A DNA stretch of 64,000 bases, taken from contig OX597822.1 of assembly GCA_951406725.2 (NCBI GenBank), positions 103,788,001 to 103,852,000 on the forward strand, in the 5' to 3' direction. The stretch is from Octopus vulgaris. Its lineage: Eukaryota. Each line of letters begins with the position of its first letter. Within the stretch, counting starts at the first letter, position 1. This document shows positions 5,413 through 10,342 of this stretch, one piece after another. Both the position numbers and the translations under genes were made by a program. The notes beneath the pieces are model-generated. The model saw only the letters and a list, made by a program, of their open reading frames with translations. It made no database searches and was not told the DNA's origin.

Positions 5413-5596
5413 ATGTTTAATTTGTTGTTTATTTTGTTATGTTTATCTTTTATTTTTTCTCTCTGTCTTTCCTCCCACTTTTCTCTATCACATGACTTTG
5501 TAAATGGACAATTTGGTGTGTTGATGCACTTCTCTTCTCTGGGTGTCGGGAGGACATTCGGAAAGAAATGGAAACAGAATTGAAAGATGCTAATGA

Positions 5597-5597
5597 A

Positions 5598-5640
<43 letters not shown>

Positions 5641-5682
5641 GTAATAATAATAATAATAATGATAATAATAATAATAATAATG

Positions 5683-5722
<40 letters not shown>

Positions 5723-5760
5723 TAATAATAATAATAATAGTAATAATAATAATAATAATG

Positions 5761-5824
<64 letters not shown>

Positions 5825-5834
5825 TAATAATAAT
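5597..5834. repeat. (AAT)n microsatellite with GAT/AGT variants
   Basis: Direct reading. Confidence 0.98.
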
Positions 5835-6046
5835 AAAAAAATATTCAGACAAATACATAACAAAAACAGGACTTACAAACACACATAACATATTGGAAAT
5901 TGCACTGCTGGGCACTGCACACATCCTACGCAGAATACTTTCCATACAATAACCATCAGAGCATCACAACAAATCACAGCACATACCCAAGGCACACAGA
6001 ACTGCGCTCGGTAGTGAAGTGAAAGCACGCTATAAAAATAAAACTA

Positions 6047-6051
<5 letters not shown>
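5835..6051 (+). mobile_element. 5'-truncated Dong/R4 LINE 3' end inserted in (TAA)n
   Basis: KKYSDKYITK..IALLGTAHILRRILSIQ* plus 3'UTR ending AAAACTACTG(AAT)n. Confidence 0.9.
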
Positions 6052-6111
<60 letters not shown>

Positions 6112-6164
6112 TAATAATAATAATGATAATAATAATAATGATAATAATAATAAGGATAATAATA

Positions 6165-6217
<53 letters not shown>

Positions 6218-6219
6218 AA

Positions 6220-6432
6220 TAAATATTCAGACAAATACATAACAAAAACAGGACTTACAAACACACATAACATATTGAAAATTGCACTACTGGGCACTGT
6301 ACACATCCTACGCAGAAGACTTTCCATACAGTATCCATCAGAGCATCACAACAAATCACAGCACATACCCAAGGCACACAGAGCTGCGCTCGGTAGTGAA
6401 GTGAAAGCACGCTATAAAAATAAAACTACTGA
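6220..6432 (+). mobile_element. Second 5'-truncated Dong/R4 3' end in (TAA)n
   Basis: Near-identical to 5835-6051, with almost the same 5' truncation point. Confidence 0.9.
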
Positions 6433-6441
6433 ATAATAATG

Positions 6442-6524
<83 letters not shown>

Positions 6525-6551
6525 AATAATAATAGTGAAAGAAAAATCATA

Positions 6552-6905
6552 CAAGATGTCGAAATATCGTTCACTAGATAACAATGGCACTCTTTTAATC
6601 TTGACACTATACCTTCAGGAGGAGTTACCTCAATCCTTTCTATATTAACCAAAATGAAGTAGATTGACAAATTTATTTTTTGAACTAGTTGAAGACACGC
6701 AAGATGTCGAAATATCGTTCACTAGATAACAATAGCACTCTTCTTTTAATTTTGACTCTATATCTTCAGGAGGTGTTACCTCAATCCTTTCTATATTAAC
6801 CGAAATGAAGTAGATTGATAAATTTATTTTTTAAACCAGTTGAAAACACACATGATGTCGAAATATCGTTCACTAGATAACAATAGCACTCTTCTTTTAA
6901 TTTTA
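6552..6905. repeat. ~150-bp tandem repeat (about 2.4 units) with hammerhead-like motifs, flanked by (TAA)n
   Basis: GATGTCGAAATATCGTTCACTAGATAACAAT recurs at ~6555, ~6703 and ~6854. Confidence 0.9.
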
Positions 6906-6911
6906 CAGTTT

Positions 6912-6977
<66 letters not shown>

Positions 6978-6979
6978 GT

Positions 6980-7995
6980 TCAGTTACAAAACATTACTCA
7001 GTAACAAAACAGGCAAAGGAATATCTAAGGGAATTCCAAATACAAGTAAAACTGAAGAATTAGATGTACTAGAAACAAGTGCAGAAAAAGCTAGGTGTAT
7101 GAAAACCCGTGCCAAAACTGCTGCCTTAGATTTTCTTACTGATAAATGACAAGAATAACCTCTCAATGGCAAATACCAAAAGAATCTAGCACTGTCGATG
7201 CTGACAAAGCCCATACCAATCAGTGGTTTGTGTCTTCAGGCCAACATATTAAAGAACCGTAGCTGCCCAACATGTCGTGTATGTCAACAACAAAACGAAA
7301 ATATTGATCATGTTGTCTCCATGTGCAGTCTTCTTGCGCCTACAGAGTATCCCAGCAGGCATGATAGAGCTGCACTATATATTCACTGGGTAATTTGCAA
7401 AAACCTGGACCTTCCCACGATAAAAACTGGTGAGAACACAAACCACCTCCAGTGCTTGAAAATGACCACATCTCACTCCTCTTGAACTTCACCATTCAAA
7501 CTGACAGAAAGATAGATGCGAATAGACCAGACATCATATTGAAAAACTTCAGACAGAAATCATGCCACCTCATTGATATGACTGTCCCAATCGATACAAA
7601 AACGTATCTGTCAAGACCTACCAAAAACTGAGCAAATATAAAGATCTTGAAACAGAAATTGGCAAAATGTGGAACCTCAAGACTAAAACAGTACCTGTAG
7701 TCATAGGTGCTCTGGGAATGATAGCAAAAGGAGCAGATTGATACCTAGCTCAGATGACAGTAAACCCCAAAATGGCAGAAATTCATGAGAACTGCCCTTC
7801 TACGTAAAATACTGTCTATGTAACCTCAAATTTTGAAACAAGCTTATAATGTTCTTCTTATGTTTTCTTAAACATTTTCAAGAACAACACTAAATACAAA
7901 ACCAAATATATGACACCCTAGGAATAACACCAACATAAATTTCTAACTTGTTGTCTCCTGAGGTCTGCGGGTGAGACTTGGAGCCAACTTGTACA
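6980..7995 (+). mobile_element. Decayed Dong/R4 C-terminal region (CCHC finger, restriction-like endonuclease) and 3'UTR
   Basis: CRVCQQQNENIDHVVSMC, RHD, NRPDII, KYKDLE, PVVIGALG; flanked by (AAT)n. Confidence 0.85.
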
Positions 7996-8016
7996 AATAC
8001 AAAGCAAAATTTAAAC

Positions 8017-8079
<63 letters not shown>

Positions 8080-8107: not shown

Positions 8108-8169
<62 letters not shown>

Positions 8170-8194
8170 GGAATATATTCACAGACACGACAGA

Positions 8195-8617
8195 GTTGGG
8201 ACGTATATACACCGGAAACCATGCCAACATTATGGAATAACAACAGAAAAAAGATGGTATAGGCACACACCAGAAAAGCTCACAGAAAACGAGAAAGCAA
8301 CCATACTCTGGGATAGGCCAATACACACAGATAGAGAAATTAAGGCCAACAGACCAGATATAGTTGTCAGAGATCATGAAGAAAAAAATGTTTTCTAATT
8401 GATGTATCAATACCAGCGGATGACAACGTTTCTCTAAAAGAAATGGAGAAACTTTCAAAATACAAAGACCTGGATATAGAGCTAACTTGAATGTGGAATC
8501 TAAAAACAGAAACAATTCCTATCATATTAGGTGCATTAGGCATGATAAAAAAATATTCAGACAAATACATAACTGCGCTGGGTAGTGAAGTGAAAGCACG
8601 ATATAACAAATATACTA

Positions 8618-8621
<4 letters not shown>
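8195..8621 (+). mobile_element. Dong/R4 3' fragment with internal deletion, in (TAA)n
   Basis: RPDIVVRD..FLIDVSIPADDNVSLKEMEKLSKYKDL; same terminal AAGTGAAAGCACG..ACTACTG(AAT)n. Confidence 0.88.
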
Positions 8622-8875: not shown

Positions 8876-10342
8876 TAATGAAATTCTAGCAGAGTGAGAG
8901 CCAATGCCTGAATGGTTCACGGAAGGGATACCTATCCTAATTCCCAAATGCACTGAAACGACAATCCCAAGAATTTAATGACCGATAACTATCTCCCGAC
9001 AATTTACAAAGCCTTTACCGCAATAATATCGCAGAGAATGAGCAAACTTCTGGAAGAAAACAACCTGTTTTCAGAAGAGCAGAAGGGGCTCATGTGGTTG
9101 TAAAGATCAACTACTGATCAATACAGCCATAGCTGAAGACAGCCGCAGAAAGTAGAAGGTCTTAGTACGGCCTGGATCGATAACTGAAAGGCTTTTGACA
9201 GTATTCCCCATGCATGGATCCTAGAAACACCAGCCATGAACAAGATAGCACCAATAATCATAAAATATGCAAAAACATTCCATGAATAAATGGCATACAG
9301 TGCTACAGCTCCTGACAAAAGAGAAACTCATAAAAGCCAAAGCCTTATCCATTGGAAAAGGAATATTCCAGGGAGACACATTCTCTCCACTTCTTTTCCG
9401 CTTGGTACTGACACCTTTAGCTGACATTCTAAACAGAACTGTTACGGTAATACAATCAGCCACCTCTTATATATGGATGATCTAAAACTATATGCTACAA
9501 ATGATAAACAGTTGGAAGCATTATTACAGACACTACATGGATTTACCAGAGAAATAAACATGAAATTTGGTTTAGAAAAGAGGAAAACTAGTTAAGAGTA
9601 GCAAGAAAACTAGTTACGATTACACTAGATAAAGGAAATGAAAAAAAAATGAGACCAAAGCCAGACATACAAATGTCTACGATACAACACACACATATGA
9701 AAGAGAAGACAAGGAAAGAATACTATAGAAGAGTTAGATTAATATTGAAAACAGAGCACAATGCGAAAAACAAGATAATAGGTATCAACACTAGTCGTCC
9801 CAGTTATAAGGTACAGCTACAATGTTCTTAAGAGAACTCTAAATGACAGGAAAACAAGAATAAAAATGACAGTATTTAGGATGCACTAACCAAACTCTGA
9901 CATAGAAACCTTATATATACAAAGTATCGAAGGTGGTAGAGGCCTTATACAGTTAGAAAACTATTACAAAATAACCACCATAGGACTACAGTAATACCTG
10001 CTTCAGTAGCAAGGAAATTAATACAAATAACCATCAAAACACGAACAAAGCAAAATAACTGTTTTCAGTCCTTAATGAAACTGGCAAATACAAAAAAAGC
10101 AATCGTAGTACCTAACAACTATGGAGACAAGGAAAAAGAAGAAAAGCTGTAAAACAACTGAAATACAAACTAATATTGGAACAGCAACGGATCATGAGAG
10201 AACGATGGCAAGAAAAGCCATTTCATGGCAAATATTGGGTTAAAGTAAACAGTAATAGACAAAGCAAAATTCCAACAATGGCTGAGAAGCTCAGGACTCA
10301 AAGAAGAGACTGAAGGATTTTTAATTGCAGTGCAAGGTGATA
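8876..10342 (+). mobile_element. Decayed Dong/R4 reverse transcriptase region
   Basis: PEWFTEG, KAFDSIPHAWI, GIFQGDTFSPLLF, HLLYMDDLKLY, WLRSSGLKEETEGFLIAVQ; many frameshifts. Confidence 0.88.

Follow-up and report, generated by a model that had tools for sequence, protein, structure and literature searches.

The tandem repeat at positions 6552..6905 (plus strand) of the window, i.e. the whole 64,000-nt stretch of Octopus vulgaris DNA analysed herein, is, judged by its sequence, a retrozyme-like, non-autonomous derivative of a Penelope-like element (PLE), with an eroded hammerhead core for which cleavage is only a prediction. It is probable that this non-coding derivative of a PLE terminal repeat is copied from a plus-strand, multi-unit template, with the hammerhead being kept mainly as a fold.

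Tandem Repeats Finder delimits the array at 6544-6904 (period 151, 2.4 copies, 91 % matches), with an (AAT)n target microsatellite on the left side (6432..6534) and a (TAA)n target microsatellite on the right (6913..6977), in agreement with the approximately 2.4 repeat units inside (TAA)n described by a first-pass annotation. As judged by unit composition and PLE-type ends, the insertion consists of a 5′-truncated unit (6552-6677, corresponding to unit positions 23-151), a full unit (6678-6828) and a partial unit (6829-6904) that terminates at PLE-type 3′ site I, all on the plus strand; unit position p corresponds to window position 6677+p. The full unit harbours a type I minimal-hammerhead fold (6682..6720, plus strand) from the PLE terminal repeat, which comprises a 4-bp stem I, an extra A after A9, a 4-bp stem II and a palindromic A-UA-U stem III. 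Its altered core contains A4 and U6, the family state, together with U3, a C3U change private to this copy. Homology and hammerhead numbering would place a putative cleavage site after C17, at 6716..6717 (plus strand). In a second copy of the fold (6833..6871, plus strand), stems I and II each contain a single mismatch, and a third is represented by its 3′ half (6552..6572, plus strand), having been severed by the 5′ truncation.

Several further elements of the full unit lie on the same strand. The core strand, from the A6 position up to where stem II begins (6689..6695), is the predicted partner of an anti-core strand (6763..6769), which is the sole 7-nt complement of the core strand within the unit. 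This is followed by a small hairpin (6770..6782), partly kept in PLE, which is the opposite-strand view of what had been annotated as minus stem I. A 'tail' common to PLE copies (6757..6798) extends between two preferred 3′ end sites (unit ~80 and ~121), and its ends are, by analogy, likely to be the two reverse-transcription start sites. On the minus strand there are two hammerhead look-alikes, one with canonical core letters (6759..6795) and one with A9G (6608..6644); all four motifs originally quoted, two for each strand, read as they had been given, including this substitution. An Rfam scan of 5500-8000 at E ≤ 10 returned no match to a hammerhead family, and its three matches are all unrelated and under their own gathering scores.

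Decayed and truncated pieces of non-LTR retrotransposons, presumably R4/Dong-like, surround the array (5829-6052, 6220-6433, 6978-8018, 8168-8620 and 8880-10340) and occupy the same TAA tracts. They carry a zinc-knuckle and restriction-like endonuclease signature, with weak Pfam matches to zf-RVT (E = 0.0006) and RVT_1 (E = 0.029). A role of these fragments as mobiliser of the repeat is not supported, since they have only the TAA target in common with it, and both the homology of the unit and its ends are PLE-type.

Copies of the unit are dispersed throughout the 2.8 Gb, microsatellite-rich host genome. A DNA search with the unit identified at least 76 matches (from the best 40 scored of 807 candidates), and a 20-mer of the unit has 142 exact genome matches, as compared with 0 for a reversed control. 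These genome-wide copies exclude a one-off local duplication, an outcome that the first-pass annotation had named as refuting its own reading. The longest stretch, at G000:C1:33626231-33629316 (L024, L022), is an array of ~20 homogenised units with patchy variants, and could serve as a locus from which multi-unit transcripts originate. Outside of this array, a sample of 98 loci (39 top matches and 59 pattern-anchored) comprises 235 pieces, with ~3.5 % divergence from their majority. Related sequence is also present in runs labelled as four organisms; among the runs listed, none is catalogued as RNA, which carries no weight in either direction. The retrozyme-like nature proposed for the repeat is thus upheld, in that a non-coding tandem monomer of 151 bp, within the range of ~150-450 bp, occurs at many dispersed loci and each unit carries a type I hammerhead fold. 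No run of successive units with the full canonical core (CUGANGA...GAAA...UH) was found in this family.

Two other sets of sequences were encountered alongside the family. A sister repeat group (L176, L182, L183 and L186) displays an insertion after the hammerhead and a G-C pair in stem II, and its four canonical-core copies may, from their sequences, constitute a cleaving subfamily. A broader 'canonical subfamily' (CUGAGGA) proved to be largely an effect of the search pattern (1/100 in an open search), leaving one four-copy group as a possibility. In addition, TAA tracts beside PLE ends (L195, L217 and the downstream flank of L191) contain another small repeat, whose hammerhead-like core is canonical (CUGAUGA...CGAAA) and which is possibly a second retrozyme family.

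With regard to the origin of the unit, a search pattern with the canonical core gave four genome matches, one of which is located directly behind a decayed reverse transcriptase (RT) and GIY-YIG frame. Comparison of the PLE frame with the Atlas gives RT/HTH/GIY-YIG as the top cluster (0.92), and a GIY-YIG-like ORF occurs upstream in the aligned PLE copies, with a Pfam GIY-YIG match (E = 0.0004) that is under the cut-off. The partner PLE has its GIY-YIG at the C-terminus, together with a CxxC linker, and is Neptune/Nematis-like by motif alone. Only broken copies of an autonomous partner, with no open frame >359 aa, are present among the best 150 scored of 1479 candidates from this RT/GIY-YIG family. 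The 3′ ends of PLE bear the same hammerhead layout as the repeat, the core being U3-A8 (159 exact matches), and homology to the PLE terminal repeat spans the entire unit. All 151 nt align end to end with PLE ends at ~70 % identity, the hammerhead segment being identical at 27-29/39 positions and the rest of the unit at ~68-72 %; the unit is therefore a PLE terminal repeat closed on itself. Accordingly, the plus-strand motif, picked out initially from the letters alone, is a genuine hammerhead relative that descends from the PLE minimal hammerhead. A tree of 57 rows sets PLE apart from the repeat with support of 97/86, and leaves the subfamilies unrooted and their order unfixed. The large PLE family (L188-L216) combines the U3-A8 hammerhead core with a G10.1.U11.1 pair, and occurs alongside older families whose cores are canonical C3-G8.

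Within the repeat lineage, the stems of the plus-strand hammerhead have been retained and its core has changed. Across 46 aligned rows, pairing extends to 97.1 % of the cells that make up the stems and the 3:8 pair, and the latter is paired in every row (CG 28, UA 14, UG 4). The covariation check over genome-wide copies that had been recommended is positive for the plus stems and the 3:8 pair. Predicted pairing probabilities for these stems in context range from 0.76 to 0.97; RNAalifold, when run on the unit alignment, recovers stem II alone. A hand count of the first 100 of 241 matches listed found U6 in 97/100 and A6 in 1/100, and the second pair of stem II to be A-U in 70, G-C in 22, G.U in 3 and A.C in 5. 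As this A-U/G-C alternation is found in U6 copies, the stem kept covarying in them. The second alteration, A4, occurs in 111/125 pieces of the window's group; the non-canonical plus core (A4, U6), listed as a caveat at the outset, is the rule in this group. Four core groups are found in the lineage (UUGUGGA, CUGUGGA, CUGUUGA and CAGUUGA). A tentative order for these subfamilies can be drawn from a motif common to the UUGUGGA group and PLE, and from the lower diversity of the window's group in a comparison that draws on a sample biased toward similarity.

Excerpts from published work associate changes in the CUGA turn with low hammerhead activity (PMC9901934) and describe a natural A6C variant as slow (PMC3088659); a literature search for activity data on A6U or U4A/A6U found nothing relevant. 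By analogy, the plus motif with its changed core is probably weakened.

The arrangement of the copies informs on the template. Mixed orientations occur at 36/98 loci, and all of these are (-)(+), with 0 in the (+)(-) configuration; this is therefore the layout expected from a plus-strand RNA template, in a test that is blind to minus RNA that never retrotransposes. For 119 3′ ends, 64 fall at site I (unit 68-90), 41 at site II (112-132) and 14 elsewhere, and in most cases the sequence that follows consists of TAA or TTA repeats. Inverted loci possess one 3′ end of each class in 24/36 instances, and two of one kind in 1. PLE copies terminate at sites homologous to sites I and II. The repeat combines microsatellite targets and inverted 5′ pieces with a tail of 30-40 bp delimited by two 3′ sites. 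For the Anolis PLE, the excerpted text of PMC11167929 describes a tail between two RT start sites, and hammerhead mutants that insert normally in vitro. In the octopus loci L061 and L133, the junction of the inversion coincides with the inverted repeat formed by core and anti-core, as might result from a template switch at that repeat.

Adjacent units often carry different alleles. At four diagnostic sites, discordance between direct neighbours was observed 15 times, as opposed to the 3.0 expected from decay, and between inverted neighbours 12 times, as opposed to 2.6. Neighbouring units are still more alike than random pairs (position 114 is concordant in 31/39, as compared with 51 % expected). 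Since units copied from a circle of one monomer should all be identical, mixed multimers appear often to have been the template.

These data bear on the unlikely, though not negligible, prospect that the repeat is a working retrozyme, whose U6 or A4/U6 hammerhead still cuts, either as a dimer or aided by the PLE protein, so that plus circles, some of which are mixed multimers, serve as templates. The conservation of C3:G8, G5, A9, GAAA, the palindromic stem III and both stems through several subfamilies is consistent with such activity, as is the compensatory stem II pair of U6 copies; indeed, stem covariation after A6U fits retained cleavage just as well. There is also a precedent, as the Anolis PLE hammerhead cleaves only with protein, according to the same excerpts (PMC11167929). 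Conversely, changes at A6 and U4 are expected to be harmful (PMC9901934, PMC3088659; A6U and U4A are unnamed in the excerpts of both), and the discordance of adjacent units is at odds with circles of a single monomer. Nor do genomic 5′ ends pile up at the plus cleavage position, with 5/76 within 6 nt and the others evenly spread. An apparent clustering of 5′ ends near this site amongst top BLAST matches was discarded as score-cut-off bias, being absent from the pattern-anchored sample.

Transcript data are similarly double-edged for cleavage. Three raw RNA runs of 11.5-12.9 million reads contain 142, 147 and 105 reads of the unit, 73-82 % of which continue into unlike sequence, and both directions are similar. 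Within these runs, in which the libraries are apparently unstranded, there are no pile-ups where unit reads begin or end. The exit from the unit coincides exactly with the plus cleavage position in 32, 32 and 22 reads, respectively, as would be expected of cleavage, but this boundary is confined to few flanks, and thus may reflect one to three expressed insertions. In organism B (L018:1684, runs X21-X23), one or more transcribed insertions have a 5′ boundary exactly at the predicted plus cleavage position. Head-to-tail joints are present in 16, 11 and 4 reads of the three RNA runs, from libraries that are probably poor for small circles, and a 181-nt closed contig exists in run X1. Such joints and closed contigs also arise from tandem DNA, however, and joints do appear in X16 and X19, two large contig sets of probable DNA origin.

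A further candidate constraint on the plus strand is a predicted helix between the hammerhead core and the tail. Pairing of the core strand (unit 12-18) with the anti-core strand (unit 86-92) amounts to -6.8 kcal/mol, with 86 % of cells paired, and has a covariation value of 0.395, as compared with 0.04-0.14 (at most 0.143) for slid registers. The PLE family pairs in the same register using other letters, i.e. A-U versus U.G at 12:92, C-G versus G.U and U-A at 13:91, and A-U versus G-C at 14:90. In older PLE families (25 rows, fetched afterwards, one of which is a spurious microsatellite match left in the count), five of the seven anti-core positions pair in 22-23/25 rows, and 13:91 and 18:86 fail, pairing in 2/25 and 4/25. 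The covariation rests on few independent events, and in a shuffle control the pair-count and pair-type measures were not above shuffles (500/500 and 435/500, respectively). A second candidate plus helix, against GAAA (27-35 with 111-119), was rejected, as it is 64 % paired without covariation and is not conserved.

This helix offers an explanation for the minus-strand motif. The look-alike at 6759..6795 does contain canonical core letters, and a descriptor cut to fit it after the fact matched 0/20000 dinucleotide shuffles of the unit; the motif is therefore not plain chance and requires explanation. Its CUGAAGA is the reverse complement of the anti-core strand, and is accounted for by the covarying helix that this strand can form with the plus core. 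Its stem I is likewise the plus hairpin that is partly retained in PLE; for its GAAA half, no conserved partner helix was found on the plus strand. It is thus likely that the minus motif is the mirror image of an internal pairing of the plus strand, and not a second ribozyme. As a general warning, a 'ribozyme on both strands' in repeats of this kind can mirror an anti-core helix.

The motif had been read as a possible genomic imprint of an ambisense circular RNA, a reading that is not supported, on the understanding that a family consensus would keep the minus core and stems. When this comparison was made, the family was found not to keep them, and all 36 inverted loci fit a plus template. The full minus core is present in 11/43 young rows, 0/6 CUGUUGA rows, 0/15 older-subfamily rows and 0/15 PLE rows. 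Individually, minus G12 occurs in 58/139 pieces and minus U4 in 98/133; in the units of the C1 array G12 was not seen, and minus stem II is often broken. The fifth pair of minus stem I is nearly private to the window (T97 in 6/135 pieces, and in 1/25 exact minus-motif matches). Minus stem III is, as had been cautioned initially, a non-palindromic 1-bp element around a GGA loop, and minus stem II consists of four A-U pairs with a predicted pairing probability of 0.00-0.01, set against the far higher values of the plus stems. A conserved, foldable ribozyme therefore exists in one polarity at most, and the runs examined show no pile-up of read ends.

That the youngest haplotype is, or is becoming, a circle copied from RNA to RNA with a hammerhead on each strand is consequently most improbable. 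It retains a small probability, as the G12 form constitutes ~95 % of the summed contig depth in organism D, where the full-minus-core haplotype is dominant. The full motif also has 25 exact genome copies, which makes it a real haplotype, if not a family trait, and its core letters were assembled stepwise in younger groups. The shuffle result, the unexplained GAAA half and the blindness of the orientation test to a never-retrotransposed minus RNA would likewise accommodate such a circle. A combined scenario, in which selection shifted from catalysis to a switch, so that the helix locking the core strand to the tail, rather than chemistry, drove A6U and incidentally wrote the minus core, with the completed haplotype then becoming dominant in a related species, is speculative and very unlikely; if true, it would make visible how the end of a Penelope element can give rise to an ambisense, viroid-like circle. 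It is scarcely credible, finally, that the repeat is PLE-derived with the hammerhead fold and anti-core helix as passive leftovers, only the tail and AT-rich starts mattering and the minus motif being coincidence: the hammerhead segment is indeed no closer to PLE than the rest of the unit, and covariation events are few, but differences from PLE are concentrated in loop 2 and the core whilst the stems remain paired, three neighbouring pairs of the anti-core helix have altered letters in both partners, and its register is maintained in distinct PLE families.

Under the favoured reading, that of a PLE terminal-repeat derivative copied from a plus-strand template, tandem source loci would be transcribed into plus-strand, probably uncut, multi-unit RNA. 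The PLE reverse transcriptase-endonuclease would nick AT-rich (TAA)n/(TTA)n repeats, and reverse transcription would start at site I (~80) or site II (~121), often with one used for each end of an insertion. The hammerhead would be kept mainly as a fold, with covarying stems and a core that moved to U6, and then to A4 in the youngest group; published mutagenesis leads one to expect that U6 and A4/U6 cores cut poorly. A 6-7 bp core-tail helix (12-18 with 86-92), which could form as a pseudoknot on intact stems, may hold the ribozyme off or position the tail for the enzyme. In vitro, the hammerhead of PLEs and retrozymes is dispensable for insertion. The present family constitutes a natural series (parent PLE to U6 to A4/U6) that continued spreading, which makes it testable, with RNAs of 150-300 nt, whether it is on cleavage or on the fold that the PLE protein depends. 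For coupling the state of the ribozyme to the start of reverse transcription, the covarying helix between core and tail is a candidate.

Amongst known systems, viroid-like ambisense circular RNAs possess hammerheads in both polarities. The octopus repeat resembles them in that a small unit bears hammerhead-like letters on each of its strands, but differs in that its minus motif is without workable stems II and III, and is unconserved. PLE transposition is also similar, as the excerpts of PMC11167929 and PMC8557442 describe insertion into AT-rich sequence or microsatellites, 5′ pieces in inverted orientation, two RT start sites that enclose a tail of 30-40 bp, and cleavage that is dispensable in vitro; the octopus repeat differs in being without an ORF. 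With the minimal hammerheads of metazoan PLEs, as presented in the excerpted text of PMC4209133, the plus motif shares a short stem I, an extra nucleotide between 9 and 10.1, G10.1-C11.1, a palindromic 15.2-16.2 and, in the related PLE family, the U3-A8 variant. It differs in its position within a non-autonomous tandem unit and in carrying U6 and A4, neither of which that text lists as a variant.

As far as the searches reach, two features are new, namely a U6 core throughout the lineage and a covarying helix between core and tail, although published lists of PLE variants beyond those seen may include U6. The main text of a study of octopus repeats (PMC13282606) contains 0 occurrences of 'hammerhead' or 'ribozyme', and the examined portions of the retrozyme literature (PMC7229834; 10.64898/2026.07.22.740005) hold no mention of a core-to-tail helix. 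As portrayed in those same portions, the animal non-LTR retrozymes are the nearest counterparts, having a non-coding, low-GC tandem monomer, with the octopus unit at the low end of 150-450 bp, a type I hammerhead fold per unit, and dispersed monomers, dimers and a long array. Derivation from a PLE terminal repeat has likewise been proposed for Xenopus retrozymes, according to the partial text of 10.64898/2026.07.22.740005. The octopus repeat departs from these elements in that its templates look heteromeric and its core is non-canonical lineage-wide, and a canonical descriptor would therefore miss such a family.
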